A stretch of 64,000 nt of DNA. It comes from Escherichia phage 172-1. Positions 4,696 to 62,387 of this stretch are shown here, piece by piece. The stretch's first letter is position 1. The number at the start of each line of letters is the position of its first letter. The notes under the pieces are model-generated. The model was not told the DNA's origin, made no database searches, and saw nothing but the letters and a program-made list of their open reading frames with translations. Where the stretch lies: the sequence record NC_028903.1; one strand, given 5' to 3'. A program made the translations under genes and the position numbers.

Positions 4696-4729
4696 TAAAA
4701 GAAAAGGCGCTACCCGTTAAGATAGCGCC
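4696..4729 (-). terminator. rho-independent terminator
   Basis: GGCGCTA / TAGCGCC stem, 10 nt loop, UUUUCUUUU tail on minus transcript; follows 4754..5653. Confidence 0.55.
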
Positions 4730-4753
4730 TCATGTTTATTATAATCGTATTAC

Positions 4754-5653
4754 TTATACTGCCTGACGTGCCGCCATAATCTCAGCTGCCTTGCGCAATA
4801 CTTCTTCCTCTTCTTCTTTCGCAGCTTGTTCGGTACGGGTAGCAACCGTTGAAGAGATACGACCGCGCAGACTTTCTAACTTCTCCTGAATAGCCGCAAT
4901 AGTCTTTTCCATTTCATCAGCGTATGAATCGAGCGATTCCAGCTCCTTGCTTGATGCGTTCATCAGATAATCGTCTGAGATCGCTACCGTTGAGGCCGTG
5001 ACTTTCTTGATGAGTGAATCAAAGGACTTTTTAACCTTGCCCACGTCTTCACTCAAGGCAATAGTGTTATCACTGGTAGCGCCATTGCGCTCATCAGCCA
5101 GCAATTTGGCTTCAATACGGATTGCATTCAAGCGTTCAACTAAAGAGTAAATATCCTGATTAAAATCTTCCTTATTTTTCGCCGGGATTTGAAGGTGGGC
5201 CGCCACGTTGTCATTGCAACCTTTGAAGAAGTTAGGATTATCGACTTCAATTTCACGGCCTAAAGCAAAGTTTTCGAAAGCATTTGACCAGCGAGCGCGG
5301 TTTTGTTCCATTTTGGCCTTAATTTGCGCTTCTTTCGCATCTTCTTTCGCTTTCGCTTCACCTTCCAGATTAATCCACTTTTTACGCCCATTTGCCGCAT
5401 CGGTGTTGAACTTGATAGGAGTTAAGAAAGTAATTGCAGTGGCGATCACGTCCATATCGCGGAAACGTTCGGTTAACAGAAAATCAACTGCCGACTGCAA
5501 TACGTCCAGCTTTTTACCGTTACTGCGGAAGTGCTGCAAGTGCCCTAACAGAAAATTAGAAACATCCTGTTTAATCGCCGCGTTATTGCTGCGGATATTG
5601 TTAGCCAGTGCGTTAAAGCCAGATTCTTTTACCAGATTGAAAATTTTAGCCAT
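4754..5653 (-). CDS. first early protein after leader (function unknown)
   Basis: 300 aa; ATG at 5651-5653 with GGTGA RBS; helical, charged C-terminus. Confidence 0.55.
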   Translation of the reverse strand: MAKIFNLVKESGFNALANNIRSNNAAIKQDVSNFLLGHLQHFRSNGKKLDVLQSAVDFLLTERFRDMDVIATAITFLTPIKFNTDAANGRKKWINLEGEAKAKEDAKEAQIKAKMEQNRARWSNAFENFALGREIEVDNPNFFKGCNDNVAAHLQIPAKNKEDFNQDIYSLVERLNAIRIEAKLLADERNGATSDNTIALSEDVGKVKKSFDSLIKKVTASTVAISDDYLMNASSKELESLDSYADEMEKTIAAIQEKLESLRGRISSTVATRTEQAAKEEEEEVLRKAAEIMAARQAV

Positions 5654-5754
5654 GATATTCACCTTTCAATTGTAAGGGCACTATGCCCCGCTCTCTATGA
5701 GCTTTTTAAGTCGCCATTGACTTATCAATAAACACTCATCATTAAGTAATTATT

Positions 5755-5802
5755 GATAAGCGGGGCGGTCTTATCAGGAGTTAACCTTGCCGCCCCCTTA
5801 TC
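5755..5802 (-). other. long stable hairpin in early leader (candidate RNase III or regulatory site)
   Basis: GATAAG-c-GGGGCGG pairs with CCGCCCC-CTTATC, 13 bp stem with one bulge, 21 nt loop, ~100 nt upstream of first early ORF. Confidence 0.4.
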
Positions 5803-6473
5803 CGTGATGTTTCATCTGGTATCTTTAATTAGTCGCTATAAACGAAGCCGACCTGATAGCGATGATCAATCATCACAATAAGGCAGTGCGTCCGACTCTA
5901 TTTAATTACATTGCTGTAACCGTCGGCAATATCGTTTATTATACTTTCGCTCTCGCTTATCCTTTATATCAGCTCTCAATCGCTAGTCATCGCCCACTAC
6001 GGGATACTGTTGCGAAAAAGTCACTAACCGCCTAACATTCCGGCGTTTTATATCTTTCGGCGAGTTTACTACATAAACCGACTATGTACTTTCATCATAA
6101 GACGAATCTCAAGCCGTTCGCATCGTAAACGTTCACACTAAACCTTATTGTTAAATAGCAATTTGCTACCCTTTAACCACCCCCCGCCGCTCTCAATTGA
6201 GCGTTAATTCGTCGGGCTTGTCTGCCCTGATTAGCTTTTTCACTGTAGCACCGTGTTAGCGATGGCCGCCGCTACCCTTAACCGTGGGCGATTAGCTTAA
6301 ACCGTTGCGTGTACTCAATGAGTCCGCTTATCAGTGGTGACGTTTCCAGTTAAGGGATTGTAAAACTGTTTACCCTGATGTTTTAGGGAGTTTTACGCCG
6401 TTTTATCTGGTATGCTTTCCGATGGTTATTATCTTCCAGCATATTTAACCGATATATGGGGACGTTTAAATTA

Positions 6474-6484
6474 TTAAAGAGCGG
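6474..6484 (-). promoter_or_regulatory. boxA-like element (CCGCTCTTTAATAAT on minus transcript)
   Basis: Matches rrn/lambda boxA core GCTCTTTAA. Confidence 0.45.
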
Positions 6485-6572
6485 TAAATCTGTCAGTGTG
6501 CTTTCTCACACTACGCAACTGTTAGCCGTTGTTACGCTTTTCACTGAAGCGGTGTTTTGCTTGAGTGTGCTC

Positions 6573-6601
6573 ATTATGGACCATGATGTTTTCGCTGTCA
6601 A
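6573..6601 (-). promoter_or_regulatory. sigma70-type early promoter P3 (TTGACA-N17-CATAAT)
   Basis: -35 at 6596-6601, -10 at 6573-6578 read on minus strand. Confidence 0.6.
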
Positions 6602-6706
6602 TCGCTTTTTTAATCTTTTTCGTCGTTCCCTTTATTGGGAGGATATATCAATCAGCTTTATTTGATTGAAGATTAAGCGATAAGGCTTAACTCATGATTC
6701 ATATTG

Positions 6707-6717
6707 TTAAAGAGCGG
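6707..6717 (-). promoter_or_regulatory. boxA-like element (CCGCTCTTTAACAAT)
   Basis: Near-identical to E. coli rrn boxA GCTCTTTAACAA. Confidence 0.5.
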
Positions 6718-6834
6718 TTACTACATTCACAGCTTAACACGTCGTGTTAGCTTGTCAAACTCTTTTTATCATCTTCTTTTATTCTTTTCCCTTATCTCGC
6801 GTGAATCTATGCGAAAGGGCAAGATGATAAATTT

Positions 6835-6845
6835 TTAAAGAGCGG
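6835..6845 (-). promoter_or_regulatory. boxA-like element (CCGCTCTTTAAAAAT)
   Basis: ~25-40 nt downstream of P2 start site. Confidence 0.45.
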
Positions 6846-6876
6846 GGATGTTTCACGTCATCGCTGACTTGTGCTC

Positions 6877-6904
6877 ATTATAGGTTAGGCTTTCCAGTTG
6901 TCAA
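6877..6904 (-). promoter_or_regulatory. sigma70-type early promoter P2 (TTGACA-N16-TATAAT)
   Basis: Perfect consensus hexamers; -35 at 6899-6904, -10 at 6877-6882 on minus strand. Confidence 0.7.
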
Positions 6905-6943
6905 ATACTTTTTCAAGTATTTTTTCACTTTCTAGCCTGATTT

Positions 6944-6953
6944 TTAAAGAGCG
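6944..6953 (-). promoter_or_regulatory. boxA-like element (CGCTCTTTAAAAA)
   Basis: Inside repeat copy A. Confidence 0.4.
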
Positions 6954-7092
6954 TTTAAAGCTGTATGGCTCCCATAACACCATTTGATAATCAGATAACC
7001 TGCGATTATTCCGGGGAATGGTATCCGCCTGCCTGCGTCTGACTTGCTTCACTCACTAGGGAGTTACTTGAGCGGTCATCTTGTCTTTCTAA

Positions 7093-7173
7093 GCTCATTA
7101 TAGTTCAGGCTTTCCGGCTGTCAAATACTTTTTCAAGTATTTTTTCACTTTCTAGCCTGATTTTTAAAGAGCG
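7093..7173 (-). repeat. ~81 bp direct repeat copy B (promoter P1 plus AT hairpin plus boxA)
   Basis: Near-identical to 6873..6953. Confidence 0.8.
7097..7124 (-). promoter_or_regulatory. sigma70-type early promoter P1 (TTGACA-N16-TATAAT)
   Basis: Perfect consensus hexamers; -35 at 7119-7124, -10 at 7097-7102 on minus strand. Confidence 0.7.
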
Positions 7174-7174
7174 G
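7164..7174 (-). promoter_or_regulatory. boxA-like element (CCCCGCTCTTTAAAAA)
   Basis: Inside repeat copy B. Confidence 0.4.
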
Positions 7175-7293
7175 GGCAAGTTTCCTTGCCTTGTATGTTT
7201 TACATCGTACCCGATACAAATCAGTATACGCCAGCTTTCACGAAGTGCAATAGGGTAAGGCAAATTATTTTAAACTTTTTCACTATAGGAAGA

Positions 7294-7305
7294 TAAAAGA
7301 GCGGG
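7294..7305 (-). promoter_or_regulatory. boxA-like element variant (CCCGCTCTTTTA)
   Basis: Sixth copy of the AGAGCGG core in the same orientation. Confidence 0.35.
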
Positions 7306-7411
7306 CGCACGTGATACATCAAAGGAAACGGCTTGCATTGCAACAATAGGCGGCCTAAAACGCACTATAGCGAGCTAAAAGGGAGTAAGGTATACAATCA
7401 CCTTATAAAAG

Positions 7412-7436
7412 AAAAAAGCCTCATGGCGAGGCTTTT
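7412..7436 (-). terminator. rho-independent terminator (weaker on plus strand)
   Basis: GCCTC / GAGGC stem, A6 upstream and T4 downstream on plus; ends the 8855..7511 operon. Confidence 0.6.
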
Positions 7437-7510
7437 AGGGAGGTTTTAAAGCATCAGATAGATTATGACCATAGGCATGACCACGGCACAATAAAGGAGA
7501 AAGATCAAGC

Positions 7511-7876
7511 CTATGGATTTACACATTGACCATTACCGGACTCAATTTCATTCATGGACTCATCAAAGAGCGTCAACGATGAGCGCATCAAGTGATTGAC
7601 CGTGATTTGTTTACCAGTGATTTCATTTACCAGTAAAATAGTTTTACTATCTGATTGCACATGATCAAAATCATTTACATGCAAAATAATAACCTTAGGT
7701 GACTTTTTACCGGTTTCATAGTTTTCTATAAGGTAGGTACATTGCAAGCCGTCAACCGTAGCAGGGGAAAACGTTGCAGCCTTAACGCTACCCATAGCCG
7801 ATAACAGCACACCTAACAGAAGAATGACCAGAAAAAAGCCTACAACCGTTTTAATGACGAATCTAATAAACCACAT
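7511..7876 (-). CDS. secreted early protein (signal peptide)
   Basis: 121 aa; N-terminal hydrophobic segment followed by AxA-like cleavage region. Confidence 0.5.
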   Translation of the reverse strand: MWFIRFVIKTVVGFFLVILLLGVLLSAMGSVKAATFSPATVDGLQCTYLIENYETGKKSPKVIILHVNDFDHVQSDSKTILLVNEITGKQITVNHLMRSSLTLFDESMNEIESGNGQCVNP

Positions 7877-9222: not shown

Positions 9223-9565
9223 ATAGCAAGATAGTGCGGTAATAATATACCACTTAAATAATTGTATAACTCAAACATCAAAGATCATTCGCTACGCTCA
9301 TGCACGCTGAAAAAGAAAGTAATAAAAGAAATAATAACATACATCAATCATTATCCACTTAATTAATACATACATCATTATTGCACTCATAATAATAACT
9401 ATTGAAACTATTTACAATCAAACTATGGGGGAAGTGGGTAGTAACTAGGGGGTATTATTAGCCTATTCATAGTGCCTTAATCTGATTGCTATACAGTGAC
9501 TAGCCTTTCACTCACTCTTTAAAGGGGAACTAAATAAACGGGTAGGTAATGAATAGGATGGTATA

Positions 9566-9605
9566 CACGGGGAAAGAATAACGGGGAGTAGGCACGGGGA
9601 AAGGT
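9566..9605. repeat. three tandem ~14 bp repeats (c)ACGGGGA(AAG)
   Basis: cacggggaaagaat / aacggggagtagg / cacggggaaaggt. Confidence 0.55.
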
Positions 9606-9787
9606 TGGAACGTGGAAGGAGGTGTAAAGGCATTGCCAATAACCATTTTTTATTTGAGGACTCCCCCTTTTTAACAATTCGCCGCAGAGCGCCCAGCCCC
9701 ACTCGGTCAAATCAGAATTTTAAACAGATATATACATCTTTATTTTTTATAAATCTGTATTTTAAACTGTTATATATAAGGTTAAGT

Positions 9788-42510: not shown

Positions 42511-43794
<1,284 letters not shown>

Positions 43795-48051: not shown

Positions 48052-49896
48052 TTAGTGCGTATGCATCCAGTTGAGTCCAATCTGACAATCAGATGCCAGA
48101 GGACATTCCATGTTCAAATACTCACCAGCCTTCTTAACACAAAGCTCGGTGTGCTCTTTGAGTTTCTGTACATCATTACGATTAACTGAGAACTGGCCCT
48201 CATCATGCATATCAATTACCTTAGCACAACGAACTCCATCCTTCTCAATCCACTTGTTAAGGAACATCATAGCATATTTCATAACAACAGCACCAGCACA
48301 TTGCAGGAGAGTGTTAAGTGCTTTATGAACCATAACCTTACCAGTGGCATCTCGTCTCATTGTAATCTTACGACCATCAACACCAATCAAGTACCCTTGA
48401 GCTGCTTTCTCTGTCATACGATCAATGAGGATTGCAATACATGGGTTCTCTGCCAAGAAACGTGCTCGCATCACTGAACCTTCATCAGCCCCACCACCTA
48501 CAATTGAACCAAGCTTAGCATCACCAGCACCATAGTTGAATGCGTAGATAAACGTCTTAGCGTTGTCACGAGTAGGAAGACCAGCAAGTCTCTGGTTGTG
48601 GGAGTGGATATCACCTTCAAGGAGAATATCACGATACATAATAGCAGAAGCTAAACCACGTTCTGCCAGAGCTTTCTTAGCTGGATTATTCTCTTCTATT
48701 GCTTCAGCAAGCATATCCCTACACTCTTTAATGAGGTAGTGTGCGAGCATACGCAATTCTAATCCAGAACCATCATACCCTAAGAATACTTCTTTACCAG
48801 CGGGTATGTAATATTTGTAAGCACCTACAGGTTTGTCTTTCTTCCCCGGCTTACCTTTCTCATAAATTACGTTAGTACCTTTTCGTATATAACAACCATC
48901 AGGAACAACGTTAGTAATAACGAAAGGACGAGAGTGATCATCATCTGAGTTATAGTCAGACTCAAACAAACCGCGACACTCATGACCAAACAAACCACGG
49001 GAGGGAATATTAACCACGATACGATGTTTGAATCGAAAAGTCGGAGTAGCGCAGCTGTTAGCTTCTGCCGAAAGTTTACCATCTTCGCGTTCCTTTGCTA
49101 TAAGTCCACTGATAAGACCTAGCCTGTGAGCCGCTACAACGCGTCTCTTAAGCAAACTTCCGACACTCCCTAGCTCACCCCCTAACCCTTCTTCAAGAGT
49201 CTCCTCGAGGTTTGTAGGAGCTGTAGGCCACTTGTTTGAGGTAGCTAGTGCTATCTTAATCTCATCAAAAGTGATAGGTCTACGTCGGTTAGGATTTAAA
49301 CCTAAACCAAAAACATAAGCCTTCATGTAGTTCTTAGTTTTAAACCTAAAGTGCTTCTCTAAGAACTTTCTGATATCAGCGTCAACCATCTCGGCTGTCT
49401 GCTTCTGTTTAGAATTACCTCGCATCCAAGCTGAATACCATGCTTGGTATGTTCCATACTTTCGCATATCTTTCTTGATTTCAAAAGTATTCCAAGGTTT
49501 CTTTGATACGTTAAACTCTGGAGGAAGAAAACCCTCATCCATAAGGGCTTCTTTAACTCGTGCATCTTTCGATGGGTCAAAGTCCACGTATTCAACACAG
49601 GTGAATGCTCCACCAATGTCCTCTCTCTTAAGTCCAACTCTATCACAATAGGCTTGAGGCCACTTCTGTAAAGCTCCAGACTTCTTAAATGGCTTCATAT
49701 AAGTAGAGCCATCTAATCTCATCTTAGGTAAGAGAGGAATTAATTCTTTGTCAATATTAACAATAATCTCTTTAAGGAGGTGAACATACCACCGAGCATT
49801 TCTTTGGTTGAAACTCACTCCGTGCTTCGCTTGCTTAGAGATTATATCAGCGACAGTCATCTCTGTCAAAAATGGGAGAGCGTCCGGGTTGCTCAC
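48052..49896 (-). CDS. family A DNA polymerase, polymerase domain only
   Basis: 614 aa; motif A DGSGLELRMLAHY, motif B RDNAKTFIYAFNYGAG, motif C HDE; no exonuclease motifs in N-terminus. Confidence 0.85.
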   Translation of the reverse strand: MSNPDALPFLTEMTVADIISKQAKHGVSFNQRNARWYVHLLKEIIVNIDKELIPLLPKMRLDGSTYMKPFKKSGALQKWPQAYCDRVGLKREDIGGAFTCVEYVDFDPSKDARVKEALMDEGFLPPEFNVSKKPWNTFEIKKDMRKYGTYQAWYSAWMRGNSKQKQTAEMVDADIRKFLEKHFRFKTKNYMKAYVFGLGLNPNRRRPITFDEIKIALATSNKWPTAPTNLEETLEEGLGGELGSVGSLLKRRVVAAHRLGLISGLIAKEREDGKLSAEANSCATPTFRFKHRIVVNIPSRGLFGHECRGLFESDYNSDDDHSRPFVITNVVPDGCYIRKGTNVIYEKGKPGKKDKPVGAYKYYIPAGKEVFLGYDGSGLELRMLAHYLIKECRDMLAEAIEENNPAKKALAERGLASAIMYRDILLEGDIHSHNQRLAGLPTRDNAKTFIYAFNYGAGDAKLGSIVGGGADEGSVMRARFLAENPCIAILIDRMTEKAAQGYLIGVDGRKITMRRDATGKVMVHKALNTLLQCAGAVVMKYAMMFLNKWIEKDGVRCAKVIDMHDEGQFSVNRNDVQKLKEHTELCVKKAGEYLNMECPLASDCQIGLNWMHTH

Positions 49897-61956: not shown

Positions 61957-62142
61957 TTACTCTGTAATAAAGATTTTGATTACACCGCAGATTACTTCAT
62001 CATTAAAAGAAGCAACAACTTCTTTATCCTGACAGAACTCTATCTTATTGTTATAAGAGTTGAAGTAATCAGCGTCAATATCCATTGCTCGCATTTCGCC
62101 AGCTGCATTGGTATCTTTAAACAGAACTTTATATTTATTCAT
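61957..62142 (-). CDS. hypothetical protein
   Basis: 61 aa. Confidence 0.3.
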   Translation of the reverse strand: MNKYKVLFKDTNAAGEMRAMDIDADYFNSYNNKIEFCQDKEVVASFNDEVICGVIKIFITE

Positions 62143-62387
62143 AGATAAGTTACTCCCTTGTCTTGTTGTGCTTCAGTGATGATACGTTCTACGCATTCCA
62201 TAGAGTATTTATCACCACGTTTTAGGAAAGTCACAATTGCGGAGAACTGATTACCAATCATTCGCTGATTAGTAATACCCCACTCCTCACACAAATTACG
62301 CAACTCTTTACGAGAGCCTACAATAAGAGGCTCTTTTTGTTCCATCATTCCATTTTGTACTAGATCTTCCAATGAAAACATATCCAT
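62139..62387 (-). CDS. hypothetical protein
   Basis: 82 aa. Confidence 0.35.
   Translation of the reverse strand: MDMFSLEDLVQNGMMEQKEPLIVGSRKELRNLCEEWGITNQRMIGNQFSAIVTFLKRGDKYSMECVERIITEAQQDKGVTYL

Follow-up and report, generated by a model that had tools for sequence, protein, structure and literature searches.

Between positions 6,573 and 7,173 of a 64,000-nucleotide (nt) stretch of Escherichia phage 172-1 (sequence record NC_028903.1; the whole stretch is hereafter called the window), the minus strand carries a group of closely spaced sites that resemble promoters of the sigma70 RNA polymerase (RNAP) of the host, and the first gene in front of them begins only at 5653. The question raised by this locus is when and by which polymerase these sites would be read, and how a transcript that starts so far from its first gene would be carried to it and beyond. 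The three strongest sites, named P1, P2 and P3, are interpreted here as host-RNAP (sigma70) early promoters of a phiEco32-like phage, with a probability of roughly 0.85 on the basis of sequence comparison. The promoter array itself has already been described for phiEco32-like phages. The array is accompanied by copies of the antitermination signal boxA, which alternate with the promoters, and is followed by a long untranslated leader RNA that is predicted to be structured.

The promoter array

Sites were scored as sigma70 promoters when a -35 hexamer close to TTGACA and a -10 hexamer close to TATAAT lay 17 +/- 1 base pairs (bp) apart. A sequence-only reading of the window had proposed three tandem, near-perfect promoters of this kind on the minus strand, and the consensus scan of the region bears this out, since exactly three top sites were returned on that strand, in the same positions and with 12/12, 12/12 and 11/12 consensus letters. 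A weaker fourth promoter, P2', absent from that reading, is also predicted. The sites are as follows:

7097..7124, minus strand: P1, TTGACA-16-TATAAT, 12/12; predicted start at about 7090 (A); inside an 81-bp repeat
6877..6904, minus strand: P2, TTGACA-16-TATAAT, 12/12; predicted start at about 6870 (A)
6731..6758, minus strand: P2', TTGACA-16-TAAGCT; weaker fourth promoter, predicted
6573..6601, minus strand: P3, TTGACA-17-CATAAT, 11/12; predicted start at about 6566 (A)

All four sites combine a consensus -35 hexamer with a spacer of 16-17 bp, and none has the TG of an extended -10. Shuffled sequences and Markov simulations predict 0.04 and 0.055 occurrences, respectively, of the perfect pattern TTGACA-N16-18-TATAAT in the 64 kb window. 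It was found three times, and two of the three occurrences are P1 and P2, located on the same strand and 220 bp apart. The third (TTGACA-17-TATAAT, 49841-49869, minus strand) lies among minus-strand middle genes, far from the early region. Weak promoter-like sites are not enriched overall (26 found, 31 expected), and only the top scorers stand out.

Conservation was followed in 15 genomes, namely the window and 14 relatives from the genera Kuravirus, Suseptimavirus and Nieuwekanaalvirus. The P1/P2 zone is rich in indels among these relatives, and its global MAFFT alignment was unreliable, owing to repeated modules that vary in number; an analysis module by module was used instead. Between two and four strong promoter modules are present per genome among the relatives. 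The -35 hexamer, the spacer length and the -10 hexamer are kept across the three genera, while the flanking sequence changes. P3 occurs in 15/15 genomes and keeps its distance to the ATG of gene 124 (about 941-982 nt), and the position of P2' is kept in 14/15, with TAGAAT as its -10 hexamer in Suseptimavirus and in EK010. The P1 module was also found in pEC-N1203-2Af.1, LAMP, Bas93 and MN05. A candidate promoter further upstream (TTGCAC-16-TATACT, at about 7250) was dropped, as it is not conserved in phiEco32-type genomes. Every module in the 15 genomes has retained a run of five to six A residues located 3-5 nt upstream of the -35 hexamer. Set beside the UP-element consensus, these A-tracts resemble the proximal subsite, with a match that varies with the register chosen.

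P1 and P2 lie within a pair of direct repeats:

7093..7173, minus strand: 81-bp direct repeat, copy 1, with boxA, A-rich UP-like tract, -35, spacer and -10
6873..6953, minus strand: 81-bp direct repeat, copy 2, 95% identical to copy 1

The sequence-only reading had described a duplicated unit of 220 bp containing these repeats. The direct repeats of about 81 bp are real, but 220 bp is the period from start to start and not the size of the duplicated unit, the rest of the period being unrepeated. An 8-bp AT-rich inverted repeat (AAATACTT/AAGTATTT), noted in the same reading, is indeed present in both 81-bp copies, where it extends into the beginning of the -35 hexamer. In phiEco32, SU10, Paul, EK010 and Bas89 the P2 modules have only a degenerate version of it, and an operator role was rejected because of this lack of conservation; the inverted repeat is probably part of the A-rich UP-like tract.

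Relation to the early promoters of phiEco32

The 2 kb around the promoters match 96 phage records, and wherever these carry a name, it is that of an Escherichia or Shigella phage belonging to the phiEco32 group. Identity over the region is 94.4% with pEC-N1203-2Af.1, 93.8% with NJ01 and 89.5% with phiEco32, and by these matches the window is that of a Kuravirus, a phiEco32-like podophage. The promoter region corresponds to a spacer without open reading frames (ORFs) that separates the counterparts of genes 125 and 124 of phiEco32, on the early-gene strand, and the flanking ORFs match phrog_13168 (gene 125 side) and phrog_13018 (gene 124). The counterpart in phiEco32, also between genes 125 and 124, is an ORF-free spacer of 1.94 kb that holds three strong early-strand sigma70 sites, with a fourth site upstream of gene 128. 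This count agrees with published accounts, in which four sigma70 promoters, placed where the early cluster begins, serve the early genes of phiEco32 (PMC8948821, citing Pavlova 2012), with three promoters in the gene 124/125 spacer and one upstream of CDS125 (PMC4281155).

For SU10, promoter sequences have been listed in Table S2 at 73996, 73668 (with the remark 'alt -10?') and 73511 (PMC4281155). Compared module by module, these correspond to P2, P2' and P3, respectively, and P2 is also homologous to the phiEco32 site 8227. The suggestion that the array consists of strong host-RNAP early promoters arranged as in T7 thus gains support from orthology to the early promoters of phiEco32 and SU10. 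Sigma70 dependence and early timing are taken from the phiEco32 literature and, by that orthology, would carry over to the phage of the window.

The two phages share the genomic position, strand and direction of the early promoters, together with the regulators gp36 and gp79. They differ in the first promoter; in the window it repeats the P2 core as part of the 81-bp duplication, whereas that of phiEco32 is an unrelated TTGACA-16-TAATAT. Both duplicated copies in the window score 12/12. The lineage with a duplicated first promoter comprises the window, NJ01, pEC-N1203-2Af.1, LAMP, Bas93 and MN05. Module spacing is 220/146/157 bp here and 200/332/158 bp in phiEco32.

Both regulators are encoded in the window, as judged by tblastn. 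The homolog of gp36, the phage sigma factor, lies at 42893-43534 (minus strand; 99.1% amino acid identity), and that of gp79, a sigma70 inhibitor and gp36 co-activator, at 62142-62387 (minus strand; 98.8% amino acid identity). Gp79 acts by displacing sigma region 4 (PMC12276001). With these two homologs, the off-switch of the early promoters is encoded in the window as well.

A homolog of the 193-bp terminal repeat of phiEco32 was found at 9502-9673 (plus strand, 90% identity). This probably places the physical end of the genome within the window, some 2.4 kb upstream of P1, so that the promoters, like those of T7, would be close to an end and directed inward.

boxA copies alternate with the promoters

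Matches to boxA were sought with the gamma-proteobacterial consensus GYTCTTTAANA (PMC5725501). By chance, about 0.57 perfect matches would be expected in the entire window, both strands counted; the minus strand has the following five from 6472 to 7172:

7162..7172, minus strand: boxA 1, GCTCTTTAAAA, upstream of P1 and reached only by transcripts from further upstream
6942..6952, minus strand: boxA 2, GCTCTTTAAAA, 138 nt past the predicted P1 start
6833..6843, minus strand: boxA 3, GCTCTTTAAAA, 27 nt past the predicted P2 start
6705..6715, minus strand: boxA 4, GCTCTTTAACA, 9 nt past the predicted P2' start
6472..6482, minus strand: boxA 5, GCTCTTTAATA, 84 nt past the predicted P3 start

As the sequence-only reading had stated, each direct repeat includes one of these copies. 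The alternation of promoter and boxA is present in 15/15 genomes; all 65 boxA copies in this set are perfect and all lie on the transcribed strand, 8-151 nt past most of the predicted starts. boxA 5 belongs to a 28-nt block that is invariant in the 15 genomes, its sole variable position being the N of the consensus. The likeness to ribosomal RNA (rRNA) operons exceeds the boxA core, since boxA 3 with its 3' flank (GCTCTTTAAAAATTTATCA, 6825-6843) is identical to the E. coli rrnB leader (GCTCTTTAACAATTTATCA) in 18 of 19 positions.

Two of the copies are preceded by a small predicted hairpin:

6857..6868, minus strand: hairpin GUCA-GCGA-UGAC with a GNRA loop, 12 nt upstream of boxA 3
6494..6513, minus strand: hairpin UAGUGUG-AGAAAG-CACACU, 11 nt upstream of boxA 5

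In the first, a G-C pair of the stem is replaced by U-A in phiEco32 and LAMP, and the loop reads GCGA or GUGA. In the second, three pairs are changed on both sides and 98% of cells are paired. By analogy with characterized boxA elements, we infer that the Kuravirus boxA copies would load the Nus complex onto polymerases arriving from each promoter. boxA 1, in turn, may be a passenger of the 81-bp duplication.

No report of boxA together with phiEco32, Kuravirus, SU10 or NJ01 was found in the literature searched, which did not cover the two primary phiEco32 papers. The spacer is not discussed in the SU7 and Kuravirus-taxonomy papers.

A structured leader RNA

The transcribed unit, as predicted, is made up of the following features:

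7414..7436, minus strand: intrinsic terminator-like hairpin after the gene 125 homolog; a terminator is annotated at the same place in SU10 and SU7
5654..6566, minus strand: leader RNA of 913 nt, untranslated and predicted to be structured, from the predicted P3 start to the gene 124 homolog
4754..5653, minus strand: gene 124 homolog (phi32_124), first early gene, 299 amino acids (aa); phrog_13018, E = 1e-202
4704..4731, minus strand: intrinsic terminator-like hairpin with a 12-bp stem after the gene 124 homolog; also in phiEco32, and annotated in SU7

The two hairpins at 7414-7436 and 4704-4731 thus bracket the promoters, the leader and gene 124. It had been proposed that the promoters drive transcription toward the genes from 5653 down to 22. 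Their orientation fits this proposal, as they aim at the minus-strand gene run that begins at 5653. The reach needs to be qualified, because the promoters do not abut the genes but are separated from them by the 913-nt leader, and because the terminator-like hairpin at 4731-4704 intervenes. With this hairpin placed after the first gene, expression of the distal early genes needs either read-through or further promoters.

The leader is as conserved as the adjoining coding sequence, with an identity to the window of 0.78-0.95 per 50-nt bin in the 14 relatives and an almost gapless alignment. No ORF longer than 25 aa occurs on its sense strand, and none is conserved beyond two of 15 and 19 aa. 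A coding role for these two was rejected, as neither has a Shine-Dalgarno sequence and both fall within covarying stems; ORFs on the antisense strand were discarded too, being intact in only 1-5 of the 15 genomes.

Covariation in the leader is strong. RNAalifold, applied to the alignment of 15 sequences, gave 252 pairs, of which 68 showed compensatory double changes. In a locally constrained structure 97.6% of cells were paired. Leader pairs changed on both sides numbered 62, against 28.6 +/- 3.0 in shuffled alignments, none of which (0/500) reached 62, and slid controls yielded 3-11 compensated pairs. The minimum free energy (MFE) of the single sequence corresponds to z = -4.1. Rfam returned nothing at the gathering threshold for the whole window, and at an E-value threshold only chance-level matches for 5500-7600, the best with 21.9 bits against a threshold of 57.5; a tRNA scan found none. 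A 21-nt loop sequence that is invariant in the leader was met in only three IMG/VR contigs. Taken together, these results describe the leader as a large structured RNA specific to this lineage.

Many records, as well as PHROGs (phrog_13168), give the label 'terminase' to the 121-aa ORF upstream of the array (7511-7876, minus strand). This ORF encodes a small early protein with a weak YobH-like Pfam match, and the label looks like a propagated mis-annotation.

A proposed course of early transcription

Protection against Rho by boxA is known from long untranslated RNAs, namely rRNA and CRISPR arrays (PMC7665894), and the long untranslated leader would give a coherent reason for the boxA copies. 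The following sequence of events is proposed. After DNA entry, unmodified E. coli sigma70 holoenzyme would bind the strong promoters P1, P2 and P3 and the weaker P2', helped by the A-tracts, and all four would fire one way, away from the nearby genome end. Within its first 10-140 nt the RNA would gain a boxA of the rrn and T7 type, in two cases preceded by a small hairpin. boxA would then recruit NusB/NusE and other Nus factors, making RNAP resistant to Rho, and the Nus-modified polymerase could cross about 0.9-1.4 kb of folded untranslated leader to reach gene 124 and then the long run of small early genes. Later, gp79 would displace sigma region 4 and thereby shut off the -35-dependent promoters, after which the gp36 holoenzyme would take over. 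Lacking an extended -10, the early promoters should be hit especially hard by gp79. For the phage of the window, we infer Nus recruitment with antitermination, a UP-element function of the A-tracts and the exact start sites.

Several observations weigh against this proposal or limit its scope. The mapped starts of phiEco32 are connected to the hexamers discussed here through secondary citations. Within the spacer, boxA 1 is not preceded by any strong promoter. The leader RNA contains more G than C and offers no obvious substrate for Rho loading. Antitermination of the rrn type acts mainly against Rho and is not known to carry polymerase efficiently through intrinsic terminators, while gene 124 is followed by a hairpin that resembles a strong terminator of this intrinsic kind; the boxA copies by themselves may thus not explain the expression of distal early genes. 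Finally, the related Salmonella phage 7-11 has no consensus boxA upstream of gp151, its first early gene, despite a similar stretch of about 1 kb without annotated genes there (88864-89916 of its record), and the boxA strategy therefore looks specific to the phiEco32 subfamily. Antitermination has been raised as an open point for phage 7-11 (PMC8948821).

Alternative explanations

A more radical view of the same evidence is that gene 124 expression is secondary and that the main product of the array is an abundant, structured, trans-acting non-coding RNA, synthesized in the manner of rRNA, from tandem UP-type promoters, with boxA antitermination and as a long folded transcript that is not translated. 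Such an RNA could, for instance, sponge up a host RNase or RNA-binding protein, or counter host defences. Much of what has been described would fit: a 913-nt leader without a conserved ORF, as well conserved as neighbouring coding sequence and almost free of indels, with an excess of covariation over shuffles and a low MFE (z = -4.1), belonging to no known RNA family, driven by perfect or near-perfect sigma70 consensus promoters and bracketed as a unit by terminator-like hairpins. Yet between the leader and gene 124 there is neither a terminator nor an evident site for processing, and the ribosome-binding site and ATG of the gene adjoin the leader; a role in cis, such as mRNA stability, control of gene 124 translation or co-transcriptional folding that excludes Rho, would be simpler. 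Confinement of the leader to the phiEco32-like lineage makes a wider comparison impossible. This explanation is thus possible but rather unlikely. We would put forward only tentatively, too, the broader idea that array, boxA copies and leader together mimic an rRNA operon whose first and most abundant early product is a functional structured RNA outside Rfam, more than a passive leader and made by means of the ribosomal antitermination machinery of the host. If this were true, the RNA could titrate a host RNA-binding protein, an RNase or a defence sensor, or it could organize the Nus-modified polymerase for the early operon.

The repeats and palindromes might also act at the DNA level, as parts of a transcription-activated origin, a type to which the primary origin of T7 belongs, or as a repressor operator over the -35 hexamer. 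Phage origins are often found at promoters, the inferred genome end is about 2.4 kb away from this ORF-free region, and both the 81-bp repeats and the inverted repeat that runs into the -35 hexamer were confirmed. What makes such a role improbable is that A-tract and hexamers are kept where the inverted repeat is degenerate (phiEco32, SU10, Paul, EK010 and Bas89), that the number of modules varies from 2 to 4, unlike iterons of fixed geometry, and that selection on the spacer is visible at the RNA level, in compensatory pairs. GC skew was rejected as an origin marker, as it merely tracks the direction of transcription, and DnaA-box and GATAAG-motif ideas, followed by eye, gave poor or non-conserved matches. 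It is still harder to see the promoter matches as products of chance, or as leftovers of duplication without activity. The weak promoter-like sites, not enriched in the window, would be in keeping with chance, but the perfect matches number three against about 0.04 expected, and two of these three fall in the spacer; both hexamers and the distance between them have been kept in three genera amid changing flanks; and the orthologous sites of phiEco32 have been reported as experimentally identified early promoters. Statistics, conservation and published data together exclude chance for practical purposes. The reading of P1-P3 as host-RNAP early promoters is therefore preferred.

Significance

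As such, the promoters add nothing new; they stand at the head of the early operon in a model phage family that is well studied. The parts that are less well described, and worth following up, are the boxA that goes with each promoter and the covarying leader of 0.9 kb. The alternation of promoters and boxA offers a testable answer to how the host polymerase passes through a long leader and a very long early operon. If the proposed role of boxA is true, it would extend rrn-type Nus antitermination beyond rRNA, suhB, CRISPR arrays and T7. The leader, with about 900 nt, unusually clear covariation and host phages that are easily grown and engineered, lends itself to study as a possible new structured RNA of phages.

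Comparison with T7, rrn operons and lambda

The likeness to the T7 promoters A1, A2 and A3, tandem strong host-RNAP promoters that fire inward from near one genome end, was already pointed out in the sequence-only reading. It holds, and it can be extended to boxA, as T7 has a perfect copy (CGCTCTTTAACAATCTGG) in its early leader at 812-829, 63 nt past the A3 start. Mutations in the T7 boxA have been reported to make the RNAP inhibitor Gp2 dispensable, which identifies this boxA as a working antitermination signal (PMC3709561, citing Savalia 2010). Both phages encode an inhibitor of host RNAP that acts later, Gp2 in T7 and gp79 in the window. The two systems have no sequence homology and belong to different phage families. 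A single boxA follows all three promoters in T7, whereas the window has one per promoter, and the leader is about 175 nt long in T7 compared with about 0.9 kb of structured RNA in the window. T7 then moves to its own RNA polymerase, while the phage of the window would move to a phage sigma factor.

The control region of the E. coli rrn operons comprises the tandem promoters P1/P2, UP elements and a boxB-boxA-boxC leader, and is served by a Nus/SuhB antitermination complex. With these operons the window shares tandem strong promoters, A-rich upstream tracts, the order of hairpin followed by boxA, and a long, folded, untranslated transcript. It differs from them in that no boxC-like GU-rich element was identified in the window, and in that the product is a phage leader with mRNAs and not rRNA.

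The nut sites of lambda are also similar, as they combine a boxA-like core with a small nearby hairpin that has a purine-rich or GNRA-type loop. In a lambda-type nut site, boxA is followed about 8 nt further on by the hairpin boxB, to which an N protein binds, whereas the hairpins of the window precede boxA by 11-12 nt. An N-like protein was not identified in the window, where no search aimed at such proteins was made. Moreover, the boxA copies of the window have the full rrn consensus, in contrast with the shortened boxA of lambda (CGCTCTTA), and the element in the window would have to work from the earliest transcripts on, at a time when no phage protein has yet been made.

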